Below are positions 1,881-19,581 of a stretch of 21,928 nt of DNA, piece after piece; within the stretch, counting starts at the first letter, position 1, and each line of letters starts with the position of its first letter. The stretch lies in IMG/VR virus record IMGVR_UViG_2651869749_000015; one strand, given 5' to 3'. The position numbers and the translations under genes were made by a program. The stretch is from a virus. Lineage: Duplodnaviria > Heunggongvirae > Uroviricota > Caudoviricetes. The notes below the pieces were generated by a model, which saw only the letters and a program-made list of their open reading frames with translations, had not been told where the DNA came from and did no database searches.

Positions 1881-1908
1881 GCGCCTTGAATGCAAGGCGC
1901 TATTTATC
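1881..1908. terminator. GC-rich hairpin between the convergent 3' ends of int and the cargo operon (possible terminator)
   Basis: GCGCCTT-gaatgc-AAGGCGC (7 bp stem, 6 nt loop) at 1881-1900, followed by TATTTAT on the + strand. The T-run is weak on the minus strand, so strand assignment is uncertain. Confidence 0.3.
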
Positions 1909-2401
1909 AAGATAGTCTATTCAGATCAGTATTAGGTGTGCTTCTTTTTGATGCAAAGATGGATTTGAATCTTTTTGAGTAACTATCAAAAAACCATTTT
2001 GTATAATTACCTTCAATTTCCTCTAATATTGAATACTTCATCTCATGAAGTTCATTTTTATAATCACACTTTTTGCTTAACAAGTCTAAAGGTGTTGATC
2101 TGATAGATGACAACTGTTCATCACATAATAATTTCTTACCAATCCTTTGTGATAAATGAGACAGCTGCATTTCAATTAATGAGACACTGGAGGCTAAAAA
2201 ATTATCCAGCTCTAATTCTTTAGTATCTCTAGAAGAGAGCTTATCTAAAACATTATCAAAAAGAGATTCTATTTGCTGACAGATTTTATCCTTTTGCCTT
2301 GAAATATCATTTCGCTTGAATGCTCTATTATTGAAATAAGACGCAACAAGCCAACCAATTATAGCAATCACAATACTTGTATAATTAACCTCTTCCTGCA
2401 T
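1907..2401 (-). CDS. Small single-pass membrane protein of unknown function (third gene of the cargo operon; candidate effector)
   Basis: ORF with ATG at 2401 (GTG at 2404 one codon upstream). Hydrophobic helix YTSIVIAIIGWLVASYF near the N-terminus, followed by a polar, charged region. Its start overlaps the stop of the upstream gene by 17 nt. Low GC. Confidence 0.6.
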   Translation of the reverse strand: MQEEVNYTSIVIAIIGWLVASYFNNRAFKRNDISRQKDKICQQIESLFDNVLDKLSSRDTKELELDNFLASSVSLIEMQLSHLSQRIGKKLLCDEQLSSIRSTPLDLLSKKCDYKNELHEMKYSILEEIEGNYTKWFFDSYSKRFKSIFASKRSTPNTDLNRLS

Positions 2402-2717
2402 CACTCTCTGCCTTATTCAATCGTTCATCAATCAAGGTCTCAATACTCTTAATATCTTTATGAGTATAAGTTAGTTTTTTCTTAAGTTCGCTTAATGTGT
2501 AGCCTTCTACTCGGATCAAGCCACCAAACGCTTCATCAATAAATGAACGCCCATAACGGTTATATCCAGTCAACTCAACATGAACTAAATCATACTCTTT
2601 GAGAAAGCCTGCCAGATATTTGCGAAAGTTTTCCCCACAGCCTGCCCCATCGTCTGGATAGCGCCCGTAAGGCTTACTGTTGAAGTCTTTGATAACATTG
2701 ATGTTTTTAGTCTTCAT
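2385..2717 (-). CDS. Small STAS-like protein (DUF4325-type, anti-sigma-antagonist-like fold) - putative partner of the adjacent kinase
   Basis: 110 aa. The segment DLVHVELTGYNRYGRSFIDEAFGGLIRVEG matches the pattern I recall for DUF4325/STAS-like proteins (V-x-L-D/E-F/L-x-G-V, then SF-x-DE-x-F-G-x-L). Its ATG overlaps the stop of the upstream ATPase gene (2707-2717). Assignment is from memory, not an HMM hit. Confidence 0.6.
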   Translation of the reverse strand: MKTKNINVIKDFNSKPYGRYPDDGAGCGENFRKYLAGFLKEYDLVHVELTGYNRYGRSFIDEAFGGLIRVEGYTLSELKKKLTYTHKDIKSIETLIDERLNKAESDAGRG

Positions 2718-3816
2718 AGCTGACCTTGATGTTCCACTGAATTAAAGTACCTGGTACTTTATGAGTTAACTCATTAATTTTATCACCTTTCTTATTAGAA
2801 AGCTTGAACATACCTAAATTACTGTAAATCCAAAGGTTTCCATGTTCATTATTTAGTACTAGAGCTTTAATACTCTTACTTCCTTGACCATGTTTATCAT
2901 TGGCTGTACCGGTTACGTCTCCAATCATAGAAATTGCTATTTTTACTGCATCAGAAACAATACCAACTTTTACTTTAGAGCGCTCTTTATAACCTAAACC
3001 TATTCTCTCAAGTTCTTCGTTAACCGCAACCTTTAGATCTGGATATTTTGATTTGAGCGTACTCATAAACCATGTCTTTTGCATTACAGTTTCAGGTATA
3101 CCAACACCTTCATCATATATAGCAAGATACAGCTGGTCATGAATTACGTGACATGCAAGCCACCATCGTTTCTCATCATTATTTTTATGCGGATAGGCGT
3201 GTAAACCAACATTATTTATTGCTTCCTGAACAGCATCTGCATATGTATGTTCTGTTTCAGGTTTCATCTTGTTTTTATAAATTTCTTTCTGGATGAAATC
3301 TATAATCTCATCTCTATATTCTCCTCCTACCCCGCTAATAATGGGCAAGTTTTCAACGTTTTCGAAGACAGGTTTTAATTTTTCGCCCCGACATAAGGCG
3401 ACAAGCCCCGAGTCTCTTAAAAGCTGATTGACTTTAAAATCTGTTGAAAATAATAATCTGTACGATAAACCTTTACGAATTGAAGTTTCAACACTGGCAT
3501 AAAGTATTACTAATGCTGCCATTTTTATTGTTTTTGTATTTGTAAAATCTAAATATAATCTCTCATCAGGATTGTATTTTTTATTCCTGACGTGATTTAT
3601 CGAGTGTAGAGAGTGCGCAAAAAAATTAGGCTTATCTGGTGAATATATTGAAAACTCAGATGGAAACCGAATAAAGTTATTATCTTTTTTCTTTTGAGAT
3701 TTTTTTTGTTGACGAAACTGCGAATACTCTTTCCCTTGACGGGAAACACTTCGCTGCCATCTTTTAAAAGCCAGCCTAATTCTTACACTTTTTTCCTTAT
3801 TGGTCTTGTTTTCCAT
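2707..3816 (-). CDS. GHKL-superfamily ATPase / RsbW-SpoIIAB-like serine kinase domain protein with a basic N-terminal tail
   Basis: 369 aa. Bergerat-fold motifs in the C-terminal half: N-box QEAINNVGLHAY (residues ~197-208), G1 box IYDEGVGIP (D235-G239; confirmed as gatgaaggtgttggt on the minus strand at 3100-3114), G2-like RIGLGY, and C-terminal GTLIQWNIKV. Start ATG at 3816 is preceded by SD AGGAGA. First ~45 residues are very K/R/Q-rich. Confidence 0.75.
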   Translation of the reverse strand: MENKTNKEKSVRIRLAFKRWQRSVSRQGKEYSQFRQQKKSQKKKDNNFIRFPSEFSIYSPDKPNFFAHSLHSINHVRNKKYNPDERLYLDFTNTKTIKMAALVILYASVETSIRKGLSYRLLFSTDFKVNQLLRDSGLVALCRGEKLKPVFENVENLPIISGVGGEYRDEIIDFIQKEIYKNKMKPETEHTYADAVQEAINNVGLHAYPHKNNDEKRWWLACHVIHDQLYLAIYDEGVGIPETVMQKTWFMSTLKSKYPDLKVAVNEELERIGLGYKERSKVKVGIVSDAVKIAISMIGDVTGTANDKHGQGSKSIKALVLNNEHGNLWIYSNLGMFKLSNKKGDKINELTHKVPGTLIQWNIKVSYED

Positions 3817-9527: not shown

Positions 9528-10220
9528 TTAATTGTGTCGCTTAAGGGTTTGTGACTGACTGATTAAGACCTTTCCAAAGACCATAAACCGATGTTCGTTT
9601 TCGCTGGTAATTCCCCATTCGCGGTAAATCTGATTATCAGAAATTACCAGCAGTTTATCAGGTATCATTTGCAGTCGTTTGACGTAAATTTTATCATCAA
9701 AACCAAATACATATATACCATCCCCATCAAACTGATTGATACTGATATCAACGAAGATGAGATCTCCTGGCTCAATGGTTGGACACATACTGTCCCCACG
9801 AACGTTGATAACTTTAATGTGATTTGCTGGTCGTCCACCAAACATCGATACAGCATTATCAGTTCTGTATTCAATGGCATGAATCACATCAATGACATCA
9901 CCGCCCTGGATAAGGCCATTTCCCGCACTGGCACTGACATCCAGCATTTCAATACGGAATACATCCTTCACCTGCGCAACATCCTCACTAATACTGTTTT
10001 TACATACAGTATTACTTTTGAGGTCTGAGGTAAAGAGATCAGCAATATCAACACCTAAGCTCCTGGCAATATTACTCAGGGCTTGTTCAGTGAATTGTTT
10101 CTGCTTACCTGTTTCGAGGCGCGAGATATTCGCCGCATCCACTCCTATTGCTTCAGCGAGATCGGCGATTTTCATGTTCTTCGCCTGGCGAAGTTGTCTG
10201 ACTCGATTTCCTATGTTCAT
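9528..10220 (-). CDS. cI: CI-type prophage repressor, LexA-like autocleavable (N-terminal HTH plus C-terminal S24 peptidase domain)
   Basis: 230 aa. HTH in MKIADLAEAIGVDAANISRLETGK; A-G cleavage-site-like SASAGNG; Ser nucleophile in VRGDSMCPT and Lys in IYVKRLQ. Divergent to cro. Confidence 0.9.
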   Translation of the reverse strand: MNIGNRVRQLRQAKNMKIADLAEAIGVDAANISRLETGKQKQFTEQALSNIARSLGVDIADLFTSDLKSNTVCKNSISEDVAQVKDVFRIEMLDVSASAGNGLIQGGDVIDVIHAIEYRTDNAVSMFGGRPANHIKVINVRGDSMCPTIEPGDLIFVDISINQFDGDGIYVFGFDDKIYVKRLQMIPDKLLVISDNQIYREWGITSENEHRFMVFGKVLISQSQTLKRHN

Positions 10221-10317
10221 GCGTTTATTACATTTCTTTATTGCGCGTTAAGCAAATCAACTTGCGCAAAATATTTGCGTGAAATAATATGCTCATCACG
10301 CAATATGTGGAGGTTAT
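10221..10317. promoter_or_regulatory. Immunity-region divergent promoter/operator (oR with pR and pRM-like elements)
   Basis: Operator-like TTGCGCGTTAAGCAA at 10241-10255 and near-palindrome CGCAAAATATTTGCG at 10265-10279. Candidate pR: TTGCGC (10262-10267), 17 nt, TAATAT (10285-10290), then SD GGAGG and the cro start. On the minus strand a TTGCTT-17 nt-TGTAAT arrangement ends 6 nt before the cI ATG, which would give a near-leaderless cI transcript. Confidence 0.45.
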
Positions 10318-10578
10318 ATGCAATCACCATTACGGAATGTGCGTAAGGCGCACGGATTTACTTTGCAGCATGTTGCTGCGGGCGTTCAGGTCAATCCAGC
10401 GACGCTGAGTCGTATTGAAAGACTGGAACAAATTCCATCTATCGAGCTTGCAGAACGTCTGGCCAATTTTTTTAAGGGAGAAATCAGCGAAATGCAGATT
10501 CTCTATCCTGCACGCTTTCAATCTAGTCAAAACCGGAATGAGTTAAAACCACAGGAACAGGAGGTAAGCCGTGGGTAA
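10318..10578 (+). CDS. cro: Cro-like HTH transcriptional regulator
   Basis: 86 aa, XRE-type HTH (FTLQHVAAGVQVNPATLSRIERLEQ). GGAGG SD. Divergent from cI across the operator region. Confidence 0.8.
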   Translation: MQSPLRNVRKAHGFTLQHVAAGVQVNPATLSRIERLEQIPSIELAERLANFFKGEISEMQILYPARFQSSQNRNELKPQEQEVSRG

Positions 10579-11122
10579 GCATCACTGGAAAGTGGAAAAA
10601 CAGCCTGAGTGGTACGTGAAAGCTGTCAGAAAAACTATCGCGGTGTTGCCGGGGGGTTACGCTGAAGCTGCTGAGTGGCTGGATGTAACAGAGAACGCTT
10701 TATTCAACCGCCTTCGTGCCGATGGCGATCAGTTTTTTCCGTTGGGATGGGCAATGGTTTTACAGCGTGCGGCTGGTACTCACCACATTGCGGATGCTGT
10801 CGCACAGTCTGCTGGTGGGGTGTTTGTATCACTTCCAGAAATTGAGGAAGTAGAGAACGCCGATATAAACCAGCGCCTGCTGGAAGTCATCGAACAGATC
10901 GGGAGTTACTCAAAGCAGATTCGTTCGGCAATCGAAGATGGGGTAGTGGAGCCACACGAGCAGACAGCAATTAATGATGAGTTGTATCTGTCAATTTCGA
11001 AGCTCCAGGAGCATGCAGCACTGGTCTACAAAATCTTCTGCGCTCCAGAAAAGAGTAACGCCCGCGAGTGTGCAGCTCCGGGCGTCGTGGCGTTTTGTGT
11101 CTGTGGAGAAACTAACGCATGA
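10571..11122 (+). CDS. CII-like regulatory protein (phage 186 CII / CP76-like family)
   Basis: 183 aa. GTG start with AGGAGG upstream, overlapping the cro stop. The pattern ...ALFNRLRADGDQFFPLGWAMVLQRAAG... resembles the 186-CII/CP76-type regulators as I recall them. Confidence 0.5.
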   Translation: MGKHHWKVEKQPEWYVKAVRKTIAVLPGGYAEAAEWLDVTENALFNRLRADGDQFFPLGWAMVLQRAAGTHHIADAVAQSAGGVFVSLPEIEEVENADINQRLLEVIEQIGSYSKQIRSAIEDGVVEPHEQTAINDELYLSISKLQEHAALVYKIFCAPEKSNARECAAPGVVAFCVCGETNA

Positions 11123-12279
11123 ACAGTTTAACGGCAAATAACCGTTTGTCGCAACAGCTGGTGGTCAGTGTCGCTGCACACCTGTTGTTACGGCATGAAT
11201 GCAGATTACCAAATCACCTGGCTGTAAGTAACCACAGAGAACTTTACCTGACTGTGGGGGGCGAGTTGTGCAGGAACTTAACCGCTGGTTTCGTGACGGA
11301 AGAGGACTTTATGTTCATGTTATTCGTTGGGAGCCAGAAACACAGCGCGTTATCTATCTTCGCAAAGACTACCCGCATGAGTGCTTTAGTCCTTTGTGGA
11401 AATTCAGGCGTGATTTTGTTGAGTGTGAAGGACCACCAGCATATTGATTCTGCAATTCCGGGACGTTACACTGTTCAGGCACCTTATAAAGCGGGTGCCG
11501 GGATTGGCGTCCTGAAATTGTCAACGGCGATGTATGACGCGCCAGCGTCTTTTTTATCGTCCGCATTTGCTCACATCCAGATTATGGTGGGCTGGGCGGG
11601 GGCACCGAAAGGTGCGCCGGTCTCCGTTGACGCCGGTTACGCCAACCCCGTCCAGTTCACCACCAGTGAAATTGGCGTTTCCGGTGGTGGAAGTTTTTCA
11701 CTGTCAACGGAGGCTGCCATCATGGCTACGATCCAAGCCCTCACTCAACCTGAAATCACCATTGACAACGGCCAGGCCGTTACCACTTCTTTGGCTGTTG
11801 CCAACTTCTTCTCCAAGCGTCACGACGATGTGCTGAAAAAGATCCGCACTCTGGATTGTTCCCCTGAGTTTTGTGCCCGCAATTTTGCGGAGACATCGAT
11901 TTCGGTAAATCAACCGAACGGTGGTACACGCAAGCTCCCTTGCTATCAAATCACACGAGACGGTTTTGCGTTTCTTGCTATGGGTTTCACGGGTAAACGT
12001 GCTGCCCGATTCAAAGAGGCATACATCAATGCCTTTAACCAGATGGAAAAACTGCTTTCAAAGCCATCCACGCTGAGCGATGCCGCAGATAACGCCAGCG
12101 TGCTTTACTCCCACCTGTCGGTAATCCACAAGGTCTGGCTGCAGCAGCTTTATCCTATGTTGGCAAAAGCTGAATCTCCGCTGGCTGTTAGCTTATATGA
12201 TTATATTAATGATGCTTCGGCGCTGGCCTGCCTCATAAATTTGTCGCTGAACCCTTCAGAGGTAAGGGGGCGCAAATGA
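11119..12279 (+). CDS. Rha-family phage regulatory protein (Rha domain in the C-terminal half; N-terminal ~200 codons of the long ORF are doubtful)
   Basis: The pRha signature ITIDNGQAVTTSLAVANFFSKRHDDVLKKIRTL...YQITRDGFAFLAMGFTGKRAARFKEAYINAFNQMEKLL starts at an internal ATG at 11722 with GGAGG 9 nt upstream. The upstream part of the 386-codon ORF has an off-frame-like composition (see findings). Confidence 0.6.
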   Translation: MNSLTANNRLSQQLVVSVAAHLLLRHECRLPNHLAVSNHRELYLTVGGELCRNLTAGFVTEEDFMFMLFVGSQKHSALSIFAKTTRMSALVLCGNSGVILLSVKDHQHIDSAIPGRYTVQAPYKAGAGIGVLKLSTAMYDAPASFLSSAFAHIQIMVGWAGAPKGAPVSVDAGYANPVQFTTSEIGVSGGGSFSLSTEAAIMATIQALTQPEITIDNGQAVTTSLAVANFFSKRHDDVLKKIRTLDCSPEFCARNFAETSISVNQPNGGTRKLPCYQITRDGFAFLAMGFTGKRAARFKEAYINAFNQMEKLLSKPSTLSDAADNASVLYSHLSVIHKVWLQQLYPMLAKAESPLAVSLYDYINDASALACLINLSLNPSEVRGRK

Positions 12280-12500
12280 TCCGGAATATTTTCAAACGGT
12301 TTACCAATCAGACTTTCCGTTGTCCTCGTCCGGGTCAGTGGTACACCACACCTGCAGGGCATGTTCTACGTGTTAGCCTGGTTGACCGTGAATGTCAGAA
12401 GGTGATTTGTGAACCGCTGGGCCGTAATTACCGCGTCAGTATGCCGCTTATAGCCTTTCGCTCCGGAAAAAACATGAAGCATCTCGGAGGTGCTGCATGA
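12276..12500 (+). CDS. Hypothetical small phage protein
   Basis: 74 aa ORF, translationally coupled on both sides (ATGA overlaps with the Rha stop and with the next gene's start). Confidence 0.5.
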   Translation: MIRNIFKRFTNQTFRCPRPGQWYTTPAGHVLRVSLVDRECQKVICEPLGRNYRVSMPLIAFRSGKNMKHLGGAA

Positions 12501-13315
12501 GTATGGAGCTGATGGTTAAAGCGATGAAAATTCGAGTGGGTAATCCATTGCGAAAACTGGTTCTGATCAAGCTGGCTGATAATGCCAGCGATCAGGGGGA
12601 GTGCTGGCCCAGCTACCAGCATATTGCTGACCAGTGCGAGATTAGCAAACGTTCTGTGATGAATCATATTGCGGCCCTTTGTGAGTCCGGGCTGGTAAAA
12701 AAAGTCACCCGGAAAGGTGAAAAAGGTAACTCAAGTAATATCTATCTCCTTCATCTGGATGGTGCAGGAGATTCACTAGGGGGTAGTGCAAATAATTCAC
12801 TATCTGGCGCAGCAAATTCACCAGGTAGTGCAGGAGTTGCACCAGGGGGTAGTGCAGGAGATTCACCCAGAACCAGTCACTCTTTTGAACCAGTCAAAGA
12901 ACCAGTCAATGAACCAATAGCTGTTGGTGCATCAGTTGATGAGTCTGTGCGAGTTCGTTCAAACCGACCGGAATACTCTCCGGAGTTTGAGCAGGCATGG
13001 CTGGCATATCCCAAACGTGCTGGTGGCAATTCAAAATCTGCAGCCTTCAAAGCCTGGAAAGCCCGTTTGAATGAGGGGGTAAACCCCGAAACCATGCTGG
13101 AAGGTGTGAAACGCTACGCGGGCTGGGTATCTGCGATGGGTAACAGCGGCACACAATTTGTGAAACAGGCTGTCACGTTCTTTGGTCCGGATCGTCATTT
13201 CGAAGAATCCTGGGAAGTTCCTGCGGTATCTGCAGCCAGACGTGAGGACCCGTACTTCAAAGCCAGTTACGACAACGTGGACTACAGCCAGATCCCGGCA
13301 GGATTCAGGGGGTGA
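12497..13315 (+). CDS. Replication initiation protein (O-like: N-terminal winged-helix domain, Gly/Ser/Ala linker encoded by iterons, C-terminal domain)
   Basis: 272 aa. N-terminal wHTH-like LVLIKLADNASDQGECWPSYQHIADQCEISKRSVMNHIAALCESGLVKK. An internal tandem DNA repeat array encodes a G/S/A-rich linker, as in lambda O. GGAGG SD. Confidence 0.6.
   Translation: MSMELMVKAMKIRVGNPLRKLVLIKLADNASDQGECWPSYQHIADQCEISKRSVMNHIAALCESGLVKKVTRKGEKGNSSNIYLLHLDGAGDSLGGSANNSLSGAANSPGSAGVAPGGSAGDSPRTSHSFEPVKEPVNEPIAVGASVDESVRVRSNRPEYSPEFEQAWLAYPKRAGGNSKSAAFKAWKARLNEGVNPETMLEGVKRYAGWVSAMGNSGTQFVKQAVTFFGPDRHFEESWEVPAVSAARREDPYFKASYDNVDYSQIPAGFRG
12760..12866. repeat. Iteron-like direct repeats inside the replication initiator gene (putative origin of replication)
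   Basis: Five copies of a ~17 bp unit T(A/G)GTGCAGGAGATTCAC and variants, ending at 12776, 12800, 12821, 12842 and 12866 (period 21-24 bp), followed by three GAACCAGTCA repeats at 12869-12910. Confidence 0.5.
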
Positions 13316-13806
13316 TCATGAGTCTTTTGAATGAAGTTCAGAAATTCATTGAAGCCCATCCGGGGTGTACTTCCGGAGACATTGCGGATGCTTTTGCAGG
13401 TTACTCACGGCAGCGCGTTCTGCAGTATGCAAGCAAGTTACGTCAGAGTGGGCGTGTGGCTCACCGTTGTGAAGGAGATACACGCAGACATTTCCCGCGC
13501 CTGACTGAGAGAGCGCAGGAGCTGGAACCACAACCAGTTCGTGAAACCAGACCTGTGCGCAATTTCTATGTCGGCACTAACGACCCGCGGGTGATTTTGT
13601 GCCTGACCCGCCAGGCGGAAGAACTGGAGTCAAGGGGCTTATACCGTCGTGCTGCAACCGTGTGGATGGCGGCATTCCGTGAAAGCCACTCCCAGCCAGA
13701 ACGAAACAATTTTCTGGCACGTCGTGAGCGGTGCTTACGGAAAAGCAGCAAGCGCGCTGCATCGGGTGAAGAGTGGTATCTGTCAGGGAATTACGTGGGG
13801 GCTTAA
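13312..13806 (+). CDS. PerC-family-like transcriptional regulator with N-terminal wHTH-like region
   Basis: 164 aa. AEELESRGLYRRAATVWMAAF resembles the GLWRRAA...W motif I associate with PerC/Pch-type prophage regulators (from memory). Coupled to neighbouring genes. Confidence 0.4.
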   Translation: MIMSLLNEVQKFIEAHPGCTSGDIADAFAGYSRQRVLQYASKLRQSGRVAHRCEGDTRRHFPRLTERAQELEPQPVRETRPVRNFYVGTNDPRVILCLTRQAEELESRGLYRRAATVWMAAFRESHSQPERNNFLARRERCLRKSSKRAASGEEWYLSGNYVGA

Positions 13807-14459
13807 TGAGTAATAAATATTGCCGGGCGCTGGTGGAACTGCGGAACAAACCAGCCCATGAACTGAAGGAAGTGGGCGATCAGTGGCGCACGCCGGATAA
13901 CATTTTCTGGGGAATTAACACCCTGTTTGGCCCGTTTGTCCTGGATCTGTTTACTGACGGTGATAACGCCAAATGTACCGCGTATTACACGGCGGAAGAC
14001 AACGCGCTGGCGCATGACTGGTCAGAACGTCTTGCGGAGCTTAAAGGTGCTGCCTTTGGTAATCCCCCATACAGCCGCGCCAGTCAGCATGAGGGGCAAT
14101 ACATCACCGGCATGCGTTACATCATGAAACATGCCAGTGCCATGCGTGATAAAGGCGGGCGCTATGTTTTCCTGATCAAAGCTGCCACCTGCGAAGTGTG
14201 GTGGCCGGAAGATGCAGATCATATTGCTTTTATTCGCGGGCGTATTGGTTTTGAACTGCCTGCCTGGTTTATCCCGAAAGATGAGAAGCAGGTGCCGACA
14301 GGCGCTTTCTTCGCTGGTGCTATTGCTGTTTTCGACAAGACCTGGAAGGGACCGGCAATCAGCTACATCGGGCGCGATGAACTTGAGGCATGTGGTGAGG
14401 CGTTTCTGGCGCAGGTTCGCCAGCAGGCAGAAAAACTGGTCAGGGAGATGGCGGCATGA
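13806..14459 (+). CDS. Phage-type DNA N6-adenine methyltransferase (Dam-like)
   Basis: NPPY catalytic motif (AFGNPPYS). Probable start is the ATG at 13806, overlapping the upstream stop as TAATG; the six-frame ORF begins at 13773. Confidence 0.75.
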   Translation: MSNKYCRALVELRNKPAHELKEVGDQWRTPDNIFWGINTLFGPFVLDLFTDGDNAKCTAYYTAEDNALAHDWSERLAELKGAAFGNPPYSRASQHEGQYITGMRYIMKHASAMRDKGGRYVFLIKAATCEVWWPEDADHIAFIRGRIGFELPAWFIPKDEKQVPTGAFFAGAIAVFDKTWKGPAISYIGRDELEACGEAFLAQVRQQAEKLVREMAA

Positions 14460-14782
14460 CGACGTTAACTCAATGCCAGCAGCAGGTGCTGGATATGCTG
14501 ATTTCTTATCAGAAAGAACGTGGCTTCCCGCCAACCAATCAGGAGGTGGCAACCATGCTGGGATACCGTTCAGTGAATGCAGCGGTGGAGCATCTTCGCG
14601 CACTGGAGAAAAAAGGCGTCATCACGATAAAGCGTGGCGTGGCCCGGGGGATCACGCTTCATACCGCGGTGAAGGACGACGACAGCGAGGCGGTCGGGAT
14701 TATCCGCTCACTGCTTGCCGGTGAGGAAAACGCAAGGCTGCGTGCAACCCACTGGTTACATGAGAGAGGCCTGAAAGCATGA
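14456..14782 (+). CDS. LexA N-terminal DNA-binding-domain-only protein (no S24 peptidase domain)
   Basis: 108 aa. QQQVLDMLISYQKERGFPPTNQEVATMLGYRSVNAAVEHLRALEKKGVITIKRGVARGITL closely parallels the LexA winged-helix domain (...FRSPNAAEEHLKALARKGVIEI..GASRGIRL). No protease motifs downstream. Confidence 0.7.
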   Translation: MTTLTQCQQQVLDMLISYQKERGFPPTNQEVATMLGYRSVNAAVEHLRALEKKGVITIKRGVARGITLHTAVKDDDSEAVGIIRSLLAGEENARLRATHWLHERGLKA

Positions 14783-15168
14783 AGCTGATCCTGCCTTTTC
14801 CGCCCAGCGTGAACACGTACTGGCGACACCCCAACAAAGGGGCGTTTGCTGGTAAGAGCCTGATAAGCTCGGCGGGGCGAAAATTCCAGAGCGCGGCGTG
14901 CGCAGCAATAGTTGAGCAGTTACGTCGTCTGCCGAAACCAACGTCGGCACCTGCTTCAGTGGAGATCGTGTTGTTTCCTCCGGATAACCGGATCCGCGAT
15001 CTGGACAACTATAACAAGGCGCTGTTTGACGCCCTGACCCATGCGGGTGTGTGGGAAGACGACAGTCAGGTGAAAAGAATGCTGGTGGAGTGGGGACCGG
15101 TTATCCCGAAAGGGAAGGTCGAGATCACTATCAGTAAGTACGAGAAAACGGCGGGTGCAGCCGCCTGA
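14779..15168 (+). CDS. rusA: RusA-family Holliday junction resolvase
   Basis: 129 aa; MKLILPFPPSVNTYWRH...RDLDNYNKALFDALTHAGVWEDDSQV matches RusA signature residues. Confidence 0.85.
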   Translation: MKLILPFPPSVNTYWRHPNKGAFAGKSLISSAGRKFQSAACAAIVEQLRRLPKPTSAPASVEIVLFPPDNRIRDLDNYNKALFDALTHAGVWEDDSQVKRMLVEWGPVIPKGKVEITISKYEKTAGAAA

Positions 15169-15187
15169 TCAAGAGGAGAAACGAAGT

Positions 15188-15997
15188 ATGAATAATCTGA
15201 TGGTCATTGATGGTATTGAAGTTCGTCGTGATGCTTATGGGCGTTACAGCCTGAACGATCTGCATCGCGCAGCAGTAGCATCTGGTGCAAATGCCAGAAC
15301 CAAGGAGCCGGGAAAGTTTCTTTCCAGCCAACAAACTGTTGAGCTTGTTCATGAATTGACCAACACCCAGAATTTGGGTGTTGACCCGGTGAGTGTGATT
15401 CATGGGGGAAATGAACGGGGAACGTATGTCTGCAAGGAACTGGTGTATGCCTATGCAATGTGGATCAGCCCGTCATTCCATCTGAAGGTGATCCGTACTT
15501 TCGATATGGTAACCAGCGCACCGGAAAAATTATCCGGACAGGCTGCTGACAAGATGCAGGCTGGCGTGATCCTGCTGGACTTTATGCGCCGGGAGTTAAA
15601 CCTGTCTAACTCTTCAGTGCTTGGTGCCTGTCAGAAACTCCAGGAGGCTGTTGGCTTACCGAATCTGGCACCGCGCTATGCCATTGATGCTCCTGCTGAT
15701 GCACACGATGGCTCAAGTCGCCCGACACTGTCACTGAGTGCACTGCTGAAACAGTATGGTATACGCCTGACGGCTAATCAGGCATATCACCAGATGGTGA
15801 AACTGGGGATCGTCGAGCAGCGCGAACGATACAGCCGTACCGCGATTAACAACATCAAAAAATTCTGGTCGCTGACAGCGAAAGGCTGCATGTTCGGCAA
15901 GAACATCACCAGTCCCGCAAATCCGCGCGAGACGCAGCCGCATTTCTTCGAATCCCGATTCCCTGAGCTGTTAAAGCTGCTCGATACCGTTCATTGA
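15188..15997 (+). CDS. KilA-N domain protein (antirepressor-like), C-terminal region unknown
   Basis: N-terminal KilA-N-like pattern MVIDGIEVRRDAYGRYSLNDLHRA...GGNERGTYVCKELVYAYAMWISPSFHLKVIRTFD. ATG at 15188 with GAGGAG upstream; the six-frame ORF starts at 15155. Confidence 0.65.
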   Translation: MNNLMVIDGIEVRRDAYGRYSLNDLHRAAVASGANARTKEPGKFLSSQQTVELVHELTNTQNLGVDPVSVIHGGNERGTYVCKELVYAYAMWISPSFHLKVIRTFDMVTSAPEKLSGQAADKMQAGVILLDFMRRELNLSNSSVLGACQKLQEAVGLPNLAPRYAIDAPADAHDGSSRPTLSLSALLKQYGIRLTANQAYHQMVKLGIVEQRERYSRTAINNIKKFWSLTAKGCMFGKNITSPANPRETQPHFFESRFPELLKLLDTVH

Positions 15998-15998
15998 G

Positions 15999-16994
15999 GT
16001 GACCGTGAGAGCACTACTGACCCCTGAAATTGCCCCGCGTATGGGGATCGTATTGTTCAGGCCAGGTTCAGAGCTGATGCCCCTGTTTATGCAGGGGCGT
16101 GTCCTGCTGGAGCCTGAGCCGGAGCGTTATTCATCTTTCGCCAGTGGTGCCGTTCCGGCGGCATCACAACCGCTGGCGGATGATCCTGCCGTTCGGGCCG
16201 TGTTCCGCAATGAGGCAGTGATCCGTCGTGCTGGTGGCGTGGAATGTCTTGAAAGCTGGTTACTTCGTGAAAAAGGCTGCCAGTGGCCTCATTCCGACTG
16301 GCACAGCGAGAACATGACCACAATGCGACACGCTCCGGGTGCAATCCGTCTGTGCTGGCACTGCGATAACCAGCTGCGCGATCAGTTCACGGAACGGCTG
16401 GAATCAATGGCAACGGATAACTGTGCCCGCTGGGTGTTGTCTGTTGTGCGTCGGGATCTCGGTTTTGATGACAGTCACGTTGTGACAATGCCGGAACTGT
16501 GCTGGTGGCTGATTCGTAATGATCTGGCGGATGCCTTACCGGAAAGTGCAGCCCGTAAGGCACTGAGATTACCGAAGCCTGTTGTGCCGTCTGTTACCCG
16601 GGAAAGTGACCTTGTGCCTTCGGTTCCTGCCACCAGCATCATCCAGGATAAGGCGAAAAAGGTGCTGGCGCTGAAAGTGGATCCGGAGTCGCCGGAGTCT
16701 TTTATGTTACGCCCAAAACGTCGCCGCTGGGTTAATGAAAAGTACACGCGCTGGGTTAAGACACAGCCGTGTGCATGTTGTGGAAAGCCCGCTGATGATC
16801 CCCACCACCTGATAGGTCACGGTCAGGGTGGAATGGGAACAAAAGCGCATGACCTTTTTGTGTTGCCTTTGTGCAGAAAGCATCACGACGAGCTGCATGC
16901 GGATACCGTGGCATTTGAAGAGAAGTATGGCTCCCAGCTGGAGCTGATATTTCGTTTTATCGATCGTGCGCTGGCAATTGGCGTGCTGGCCTGA
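15999..16994 (+). CDS. DUF968-like phage protein with C-terminal HNH/zinc-finger-like motif
   Basis: 331 aa. C-terminal [46 protein letters not shown] start overlapping the upstream stop. Confidence 0.55.
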
Positions 16995-17011
16995 TTTTGT
17001 GGAGAAAGTTG

Positions 17012-17377
17012 ATGCGTGATATTCAAATGGTTCTTGAACGTTGGGGGGCATGGGTGGCAAATAATCACGAGGATGTCACCTGGTCGTCTATTGCTGCAGG
17101 ATTTAAAGGACTAATCCCTTCAAAAGTAAAATCCCGCCCGCAATGTTGTGACGATGACGCGATGATCATTTGTGGATGCATGGCTCGCCTGAAAAAGAAC
17201 AACAGCGATTTGCACGATTTATTAGTGGATTATTATGTAGGTGGTATGACTTTTATGGCGCTTGCCCGTAAACATGGGCGTTCTGATTGCTGGGTTGGGC
17301 GTTTATTGCAAAAGGCTGAAGGTGTAGTTGATGGCATGTTAATGATGTTAGAAATTGAGCTAGAGATGGATCGTTAG
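17012..17377 (+). CDS. Q: Late-gene antitermination protein Q (phage-82/DLP12 QuuD-like family)
   Basis: [36 protein letters not shown]...[16 protein letters not shown] matches the Q-antiterminator family as I recall it. ATG at 17012 with GGAG 8 nt upstream; the six-frame ORF starts at a TTG at 16997. Confidence 0.8.
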
Positions 17378-18528: not shown

Positions 18529-19581
18529 ATGAAAAATACTGTGAAAATAAACAGTGTTGATTTAATCAACGCTGATTGCCTGCATTTTATTCAGTCCCTG
18601 CCTGATGATTCCATTGACCTGATTGTTACCGATCCGCCGTACTTCAAGGTGAAACCCAACGGCTGGGACAATCAGTGGAAAGGGGACGAAGATTACCTTA
18701 AGTGGCTGGACCACTGTCTGGCCCAGTTCTGGCGGGTGTTAAAACCTGCCGGAAGCCTTTACCTGTTCTGTGGGCATCGCCTGGCATCTGATATTGAGAT
18801 CATGATGCGTGAACGTTTCAACGTGCTTAACCATATCATCTGGGCGAAGCCGTCCGGACGTTGGAATGGGTGTAATAAAGAAAGTCTGCGTGCATATTTT
18901 CCAGCCACAGAGCGCGTTCTGTTTGCTGAACATTACCAGGGGCCATATCGCGGCAAAAGTGACGGCTATGCGGCAAAAGAAAGGGAACTCAAACAGCACA
19001 TAATGGCACCGCTGATTTCGTATTTCAGGGATGCTCGTGCCGAACTGGGTATAACGGCAAAACAAATTGCCGAAGCCACAGGTAAGAAAAATATGGTTTC
19101 CCACTGGTTTGGTGCCAGTCAGTGGCAGTTGCCGAATGAGGCTGACTATCGGAAGTTACAGGCACTGTTTTCCCGTATAGCGGCAGAGAAGTTTCAGGAA
19201 CAACAACTGGAACAACCACACCACCAGCTGGTGGCATCTTATGATTCACTGAATCGCAAATATTCTGAATTGCTGGATGAGTTTAAATCTCTCCGGCGCT
19301 ATTTCTCCGTATCAGTCTCCGTGCCTTATACCGATGTCTGGATGCATAAACCCGTTCAGTTCTACCCGGGTAAACATCCGTGTGAGAAACCTGCGGATAT
19401 GCTCCGGCAAATAATCAATGCCAGTAGTCGACCTGGTGATCTGGTTGCTGATTTTTTTATGGGATCCGGTTCCACAATAAAAGCAGCAATGGCGCTGGGG
19501 CGTCGGGCCTTAGGTGTTGAGCTTGAGTCAGAGCGGTTTAACCAGACAGTGAAAGAGATAAACGAGCTGGTGGGGAAATAA
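18529..19581 (+). CDS. DNA methyltransferase, beta-class N6-adenine/N4-cytosine type (orphan, no restriction enzyme partner seen)
   Basis: 350 aa. Motif IV DPPY (LIVTDPPYF) near the N-terminus and motif I FxGSGS (DFFMGSGSTIKAA) near the C-terminus. Confidence 0.8.
   Translation: MKNTVKINSVDLINADCLHFIQSLPDDSIDLIVTDPPYFKVKPNGWDNQWKGDEDYLKWLDHCLAQFWRVLKPAGSLYLFCGHRLASDIEIMMRERFNVLNHIIWAKPSGRWNGCNKESLRAYFPATERVLFAEHYQGPYRGKSDGYAAKERELKQHIMAPLISYFRDARAELGITAKQIAEATGKKNMVSHWFGASQWQLPNEADYRKLQALFSRIAAEKFQEQQLEQPHHQLVASYDSLNRKYSELLDEFKSLRRYFSVSVSVPYTDVWMHKPVQFYPGKHPCEKPADMLRQIINASSRPGDLVADFFMGSGSTIKAAMALGRRALGVELESERFNQTVKEINELVGK

Follow-up and report, generated by a model that had tools for sequence, protein, structure and literature searches.

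Does a PerC-like gene in the early region of a lambdoid prophage connect phage induction to the virulence regulation of the host, or does it serve the development of the phage itself? The question is raised by an open reading frame (ORF) at positions 13312–13806 of the IMG/VR virus record IMGVR_UViG_2651869749_000015, a caudoviricete stretch of 21,928 nucleotides that we refer to as the window. From the sequence alone, the original prediction had noticed that a GLYRRAATVW motif in the C-terminal part of the encoded protein resembles the PerC/Pch family of virulence activators, had placed the gene in the early-right operon, and had raised the possibility that the prophage feeds into host virulence regulation on induction. 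The explanation that we favor, with somewhat more confidence than doubt, is a combined one, namely that the ORF encodes a YfdN-type protein of the PerC family and that this protein modulates phage development.

PerC-family membership and the YfdN branch

The resemblance to PerC and Pch proteins was borne out. A profile search for the PerC family had been set beforehand as the test that could refute it, and the Pfam PerC model (PF06069) aligned to the yfdN-like protein with 36.2 bits (E = 7.5e-9), exceeding its gathering threshold of 22.6. The match spans amino acids 98–149, GLYRRAATVW included, and profile positions 5–56 of 90; the second half of the profile (positions 57–90) has no counterpart in the protein, so that the domain is not covered in full. 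In BLASTP comparisons, PerC from enteropathogenic E. coli (EPEC; pEAF/pMAR2) showed 37% identity over 46 amino acids (E = 1e-6), and in an alignment with PerC and with PchA, PchD, and PchE of strain Sakai, 11 columns are invariant (A100, L103, E104, G107, R110, R111, A112, W116, R129, R136, and C139). Given the E-values of the hidden Markov model (HMM) and BLASTP matches and these invariant columns, the resemblance is not a chance one. PHROG 1324, described as 'transcriptional activator', matched residues 1–161 with E = 3e-77. The NCBIfam model for ANR proteins (NF033650) aligned over positions 5–51 of 54 with a score of 23.7 bits, below its cut-off of 32. We regard the assignment of the protein to the PerC family, as a member of the YfdN type, as practically certain.

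The ORF lies on the + strand and runs from a GTG at 13312, the start usually given in RefSeq, to a TAA stop at 13804–13806 (164 codons). The ATG at 13318 is more likely the true start, because an AGGGGG Shine-Dalgarno-like run is found 8 nt before it, at a suitable spacing, and because the homologues, even those with 26–48% identity, all begin with MS(L/M/T) at the matching ATG. Read from this codon, the YfdN-type PerC-family gene occupies 13318–13806 (+) and encodes 162 amino acids, with GLYRRAATVW at residues 107–116 (nt 13636–13665). Both ends of the ORF are interlocked with its neighbors: the TGA stop of the upstream replication-initiator-like gene (13313–13315) overlaps the GTG at 13312, and the TAA in turn overlaps the start codon of the Dam methylase gene that follows (ATG, 13806). 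The ratio of nonsynonymous to synonymous substitution rates (dN/dS) was 0.16 against K-12, 0.28 against Shigella, and 0.36 against a Citrobacter homologue, which indicates purifying selection. The two-domain YfdN-type family is kept down to 25% identity, and the ORF is a real, selected gene.

The placement in the early-right operon likewise held up, on the basis of gene order, the overlapping start and stop codons, and a promoter and terminator scan. In a simple consensus scan, the + strand was free of promoter-like sites from about 9,700 to 17,200 and of terminator-like sites from about 11,800 to 16,400; the latter interval includes the yfdN-like gene. Since its start and stop codons overlap those of its neighbors and no such sites surround it, the gene is a member of the early-right (pR-to-Q) operon.

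The gene is already known and annotated, and is an ordinary prophage gene. K-12 YfdN (b2357), encoded in the cryptic prophage CPS-53, is identical at 158 of 164 residues (96%) without gaps, and a 'PerC family transcriptional regulator' of phiSTEC1575-Stx2k is 100% identical. Of 5426 complete E. coli genomes, 2668 contain the DNA of the gene, including that of harmless K-12. Phages that carry it include SfV (orf40), SfII, SfIV, mEp460, Ayreon, and ST64B (Sb43); near-identical genes are found in many Stx2c and Stx2a phages, as well as Stx2k phages, of Shiga toxin-producing E. coli (STEC), and YfdN-type genes also occur in phages of Salmonella, Citrobacter, and Kosakonia. Among the matches listed, the RefSeq name is 'yfdN: PerC family transcriptional regulator', which GenBank uses as well, and thousands of copies bear this name in a collection of 5.8 billion proteins; the K-12 record still reads 'uncharacterized protein YfdN'. 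SfV orf40, ST64B Sb43, and PHROG 1324 are equivalents of K-12 YfdN, which matches the window protein over its full length and has the same RefSeq name and matching neighbors. Nothing essential distinguishes the window gene from K-12 yfdN, except that the early operon of the window is apparently complete whereas CPS-53 of K-12 has decayed.

More distant relatives were collected by an exhaustive HMMER search of 1.84 billion cluster representatives, which returned only 101 clusters at E <= 0.001; many of these are full-length proteins of 140–165 amino acids with 25–50% identity. A scan of genome contigs yielded only eight loci, the initial viral scan returned only relatives with at least 98% identity, and a scan with P0170 gave no loci. 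None of the defence-system models in PADLOC matched the yfdN-like protein.

The protein database also contains rare fusion ORFs, in which most of YfdN is linked to portions of neighboring proteins. Some join an HTH_36/DnaD_N initiator to PerC (234 amino acids), and others join PerC to Dam (238–240 amino acids) or to RusA (204–206 amino acids); the whole fusion set consists of P0020/P0021, P0025/P0027/P0031/P0039, and P0034/P0035/P0045. These ORFs are probably deletion or frameshift products of decaying prophages, not designed fusions.

Domain architecture and relation to PerC, Pch, and ANR proteins

We aligned 30 YfdN-type proteins end to end, down to 25% identity (alignment A1), and built an AlphaFold2 (AF2) model on the YfdN-type alignment, with a mean predicted local distance difference test (pLDDT) score of 81. 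Four parts can be distinguished. The N-terminal domain (residues 1–60; 13318–13497, +) is modeled as three helices and a beta-hairpin wing with a pLDDT of about 86–92. It is followed by a variable and probably disordered linker (residues 61–89; 13498–13584, +), where the pLDDT falls below 50 at residues 64–80 and which forms the most variable and gap-rich part of A1. The PerC/ANR-type core (residues 90–143; 13585–13746, +) is predicted with a pLDDT of 92–96 as three helices (90–105, 109–122, and 126–143), and contains both GLYRRAATVW and the invariant C139. The protein ends in a family-specific tail with the consensus W.LAG.YVG (13747–13803, +), which takes the place of the second half of PerC and Pch and is modeled with low confidence. 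Conservation in the 30-protein alignment is concentrated in an N-terminal block (M1, P15), the PerC core, and the tail. Four core residues, L103, R111, A112, and C139, are invariant, and the tail residues G157 and G161, which have no equivalent in PerC or Pch, are nearly so.

The N-terminal domain is predicted to be a winged helix of the DNA-binding kind. Its Foldseek matches were generic winged-helix DNA-binding domains of the ArsR/SmtB, MarR, and BlaI types (root-mean-square deviation 1.7–2.8 over about 60 columns), none of them with E <= 0.001, and the hints from sequence are weak (FaeA, E = 0.11; a MarR-type PHROG, 2e-4). The C-terminal core gave weak TPR/MIT-like matches. As no Foldseek match of the full-length or C-terminal models reached E <= 0.001, no specific structural homologue can be named, and the PDB, searched by sequence and by profile, yielded no relative with a solved structure.

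The core A..LE..G.YRRA...W....ER....RR..C is common to the yfdN-like protein and PerC/PchA/B/C, all of which are encoded on horizontally acquired elements. Outside the core the proteins differ. PerC and Pch are single-domain proteins of 89–104 amino acids, whereas the yfdN-like protein has 162, with the winged helix and linker added, and the C-terminal half common to PerC, PchA, PchD, and PchE is replaced by the short YfdN tail. PchD, PchE, and the PerC-like proteins of phage-inducible chromosomal islands (PICIs) EcCIEDL933, EcCICFT073, and EcCIMP1_025 belong to the PerC family like the yfdN-like protein, but are single-domain proteins of about 90 amino acids that match the full profile.

Gene contexts diverge as well. 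In Sp4, pchA stands by itself as a moron on the opposite strand, with the Q region on one side and the lysis genes on the other, and perC comes third in perABC; the yfdN-like gene, in contrast, lies inside the early operon and overlaps its neighbors. The pchD gene lies within SpLE1. The pchE gene, in the PICI-like Sp7, comes after primase and SSB genes and thus, like the yfdN-like gene, follows replication genes.

A weaker likeness links the core to ANR proteins (Aar and its relatives), which are described as having three predicted helices and, near the end, a highly conserved cysteine (PMC4038620). The yfdN-like core taken alone is likewise predicted to form three helices, with C139 as the invariant cysteine. 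ANR proteins, however, have 39–80 amino acids as against 162 for the whole yfdN-like protein, carry no DNA-binding domain, and are usually linked to AraC-family regulons.

Phage development, replication, and virulence as candidate roles

For the mechanistic part of the favored explanation our confidence is lower, and we propose only tentatively, by analogy with other PerC-family and ANR proteins, that the yfdN-like protein is a DNA-tethered modulator of phage development. Judging from the position of its gene, it would be made early after induction and be absent from the repressed lysogen. It is predicted to consist of two folded parts, the winged helix and the PerC-type three-helix core, with a flexible linker between them. 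Of these parts, the winged helix would position the protein on DNA, and the core, shared with PerC/Pch and more weakly with ANR, may act on nucleoprotein or regulator complexes, either by loosening silencing complexes of H-NS, StpA, and Hha in the manner of Pch, or through binding to a host regulator, as is the case for ANR proteins. The protein would then serve the phage's own development, and effects on host virulence loci would be a strain-dependent side effect.

The distribution of the gene argues for such a phage-centered role. Most hosts that carry YfdN-type genes lack the enterocyte effacement locus (LEE), as does K-12. Because about half of E. coli, together with phages of Salmonella, Citrobacter, and Kosakonia, have the gene although most of these hosts are without LEE, its selected function lies elsewhere than in LEE, most plausibly in phage development. 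The conserved order initiator–YfdN–methyltransferase, described below, points in the same direction. A precedent for action on silencing complexes comes from Pch, which activates LEE1 only via relief of silencing by H-NS, StpA, and Hha and lowers H-NS occupancy at LEE1 (PMC4764244).

Several points weigh against this explanation. Direct binding of Pch to H-NS went undetected (authors' unpublished observations; PMC4764244). The DNA-binding domain is a predicted fold that matched no structure in Foldseek at E <= 0.001, and the half of the PerC profile that follows the core is absent from the protein. Our literature search on yfdN found no functional study of YfdN or of any YfdN-type protein; the gene is mentioned incidentally, in a glycogen-excess overexpression screen, in work on nitric oxide regulation in CFT073, as part of a region in a filamentation screen, and in a predicted interactome cluster. 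In the closest whole-prophage relatives (ETEC1718 and similar; 84% coverage, 97.6% identity), yfdN is a truncated pseudogene (L002:13625–13939 in ETEC1718) and Dam is missing, whereas the window is one of the versions in which both genes are intact; the yfdN-like gene is therefore dispensable for a resident prophage. Finally, a function in replication or DNA modification would explain at least equally well why the gene sits strictly between initiator and methyltransferase.

This last point leads to the alternative that survives best, which we nevertheless consider unlikely: that the protein is an accessory of a replication or DNA-modification module and not a transcription regulator, acting either as a partner of the initiator, in the slot of a DnaC-like or lambda-P-like loader, or in the control or targeting of the methyltransferase next door. 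The gene neighborhood is its main support. In the window, the gene is preceded by a replication-initiator-like gene (12497–13315, +; 272 amino acids) with HTH_36/DnaD_N matches in Pfam, annotated in relatives as replication protein O or primosomal protein I, and followed by a Dam-type N6-adenine DNA methyltransferase gene (13806–14459, +; Pfam Dam PF05869, E = 1.1e-44). An initiator-like gene lies directly 5' of the YfdN-like gene in every context examined, with start and stop codons overlapping or a few bases apart. These contexts include Citrobacter (48% identity) and Kosakonia (26–28%) prophages, ST64B, F1055, and two more divergent IMG/VR subfamilies, so that the order persists at 26–35% identity and across at least four N-terminal types of initiator. 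Phages of E. coli, Shigella, Salmonella, Citrobacter, and Kosakonia preserve the full order initiator–YfdN–methyltransferase, and the window gene has the neighborhood of the YfdN orthologous group, with an initiator upstream and a methyltransferase downstream. Even K-12 retains it as yfdO (initiator remnant), yfdN, and yfdM (methyltransferase remnant).

On the downstream side, the YfdN stop codon coincides with, or lies close to, the start of a methyltransferase gene for about 140 of the 163 loci. By sequence, the enzymes group into four clusters: Dam PF05869-like (about 105 loci), MT-A70-like (25), D12-class (10), and a C5+D12 fusion (2), labels that come from sequence motifs and record annotations, with confirmation by Pfam for the window Dam only. 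The methyltransferase slot thus appears to be conserved while the enzyme in it varies. Against the accessory role, 17 of the loci have no methyltransferase after the gene, and in these the YfdN-like gene is followed directly by a protein with a LexA DNA-binding domain (DBD). The 163 loci are also far from independent, and all these counts are descriptive and not statistical tests. Moreover, gene order in mosaic lambdoid phages can mean a fixed slot and not a physical interaction, and close relatives with truncated yfdN exist, though these may be defective.

Evidence on the initiator side is similarly divided. With lambda P and DnaC-like loaders the yfdN-like protein shares only the place of its gene, which comes immediately after that of the initiator and overlaps it at the start and stop codons; Pfam, PHROG, NCBIfam, PDB sequence, and Foldseek searches revealed no similarity to a helicase loader, nor did the protein resemble a replication protein. 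In favor of the accessory role, none of the ORFs scanned on the two arms of the prophage had a Pfam match to a helicase or to a loader of one, although several left-arm ORFs lack Pfam matches of any kind. The weak resemblance of the PerC core model to TPR/MIT modules, which bind peptides, would also suit an accessory with a protein partner.

A candidate docking peptide is the end of the initiator. The initiators are mosaic, combining N-terminal domains of at least four types with middle domains of three types, and all end in IPxGFRG; the window protein ends in DYSQIPAGFRG, and its C-terminal region with this tail is encoded at 13240–13315. Since the coding sequences of IPxGFRG show synonymous differences and variable spacing, we favor a peptide motif over a ribosome-binding site alone, and the motif may be a conserved C-terminal docking site of this class of initiators.

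We rejected IPxGFRG as a YfdN-specific docking motif, as the tail is not restricted to phages that carry YfdN: the Sakai Sp4 initiator ECs_1073 (L013:9894–10985) ends in IPPGFRG and is followed by ECs_1074. That gene occupies the same slot as the YfdN-like gene and is named 'phage DNA replication protein' in the Sakai record, which speaks for the accessory role; we take ECs_1074 to be DnaC-like.

An extension of the accessory role, which we consider improbable, is that YfdN-type proteins are not virulence regulators but adaptors that occupy the helicase-loader slot as a fixed part of a conserved initiator–YfdN–methyltransferase unit, in a large group of enterobacterial lambdoid phages. On that view, the TPR/MIT-like core may dock a partner (the IPxGFRG tail, the methyltransferase, or a replication or nucleoid protein of the host) while the winged helix would hold DNA. 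If this were true, the PerC/ANR fold would be an old phage module for replication or chromatin handling, and PerC and Pch a cut-down version of it co-opted for virulence control.

More improbable still is the suggestion with which the question began, that the protein is a functional equivalent of PerC or PchABC whose production on induction activates ler/LEE1 or other H-NS-silenced virulence loci. In its favor, the PerC core motif is fully conserved, and near-identical genes are carried by Stx2c, Stx2a, and Stx2k phages of STEC. LEE1 is activated by PerC and by the group 1 Pch proteins, which can be exchanged for one another between EPEC and enterohemorrhagic E. coli (EHEC; PMC5293775, PMC5931665). 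As a precaution, Uhlich et al removed yfdN, termed 'the K12 unique PerC homologue' in the literature, from the K-12 strain that carried their ler-lacZ reporter (PMC5931665). Other members of the family behave differently, however. LEE is little affected by PchD and PchE (PMC6265319, PMC5931665), and PchE represses curli and adhesion (PMC5931665, PMC6265319, PMC7369912); the PICI-encoded PerC-like proteins of EDL933 and CFT073 do not affect LEE1, and EcCIMP1_025 represses or silences it (PMC11773190).

Because the studied members activate LEE, leave it unaffected, or repress it, the PerC-family label is no evidence of virulence activation. The protein itself departs from the activators in matching profile positions 5–56 of 90 only, in its added winged helix, and in not being a single-domain protein of 89–104 amino acids; the gene context is unlike those of pchA and perC, and the gene is widespread in E. 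coli, K-12 included, and in phages of Salmonella, Citrobacter, and Kosakonia. By comparison with the studied relatives, activation of ler/LEE would not be the default expectation. 'PerC family' is thus an annotation label and not a predictor of function, and the presence of yfdN says nothing about the pathogenic potential of a host. For the abundant YfdN branch, with its near-identical copies in Stx2-converting phages, the question is whether it concerns virulence regulation or phage replication and development.

That the GLYRRAATVW match is fortuitous and the ORF non-functional can be dismissed, as the HMM hit, the alignment of a conserved two-domain family with dN/dS well under 1, the start and stop codons overlapping genes on both sides, and thousands of identical or near-identical database copies all exclude it; nothing speaks for it beyond the low confidence that the original prediction gave to its own assignment.

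Other features of the prophage

The window contains prophage only, beginning at an attachment site that adjoins yjjG, and its overall layout around the yfdN-like gene is typically lambdoid. The integrase gene (386–1609) is followed by leftward early genes, a gene for a cI-like repressor with an S24 peptidase domain (9528–10220, -), a cro-like gene (10318–10578), and, to the right of the latter, a CII-like gene. A Rha/Ash ORF of 386 amino acids (11119–12279, +) and an ORF of 74 amino acids precede the initiator. Downstream of Dam lies a gene for a 108-amino-acid protein (14456–14782, +) that consists of a LexA DBD (Pfam E = 2.9e-19) and has no S24 peptidase domain. RusA, KilA-N, and DUF968 genes are located between this gene and Q (16997–17377), and the lysis genes lie beyond a second methyltransferase gene.

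In the Citrobacter and Kosakonia relatives, too, the LexA-DBD-only protein is conserved a short way downstream; it might act as a competitor for LexA boxes or influence the SOS response. With the second methyltransferase, an orphan-looking type II-like enzyme encoded between Q and the lysis genes (18529–19581, +; PADLOC MTase_II, E = 3e-152), the prophage has two DNA methyltransferases, the other being Dam.

Beside the integrase, at 1907–3816 (-), we noted a cassette of three genes, comprising a 165-amino-acid ORF, a 110-amino-acid ORF with a STAS-like DUF4325 domain, and a 369-amino-acid ORF. The 165- and 369-amino-acid ORFs had no Pfam match, and none of the three matched a PADLOC model; its location and orientation point to a moron or to a possible defence cassette.

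Rfam models identified two RNAs within the 386-amino-acid ORF (11119–12279): the Hfq-binding small RNA isrK at 11479–11555 (+; 62.2 bits against a cut-off of 50) and, at 11580–11667 (+; 81.4 bits against a cut-off of 45), a C4 antisense RNA. The same pair is found in sb41 of ST64B, and the region looks like a c4-antirepressor of the P1/P7 type or an immunity module of the Gifsy-1 isrK type. In relatives, the ORF is annotated as one protein, either 'Rha family regulatory protein' or 'peptidase', and its Phage_ASH match in Pfam (amino acids 117–212; nt 11467–11754) overlaps both RNAs. The N-terminal third of the 386-amino-acid protein may represent RNA genes instead of coding sequence, or the DNA may serve in both roles.

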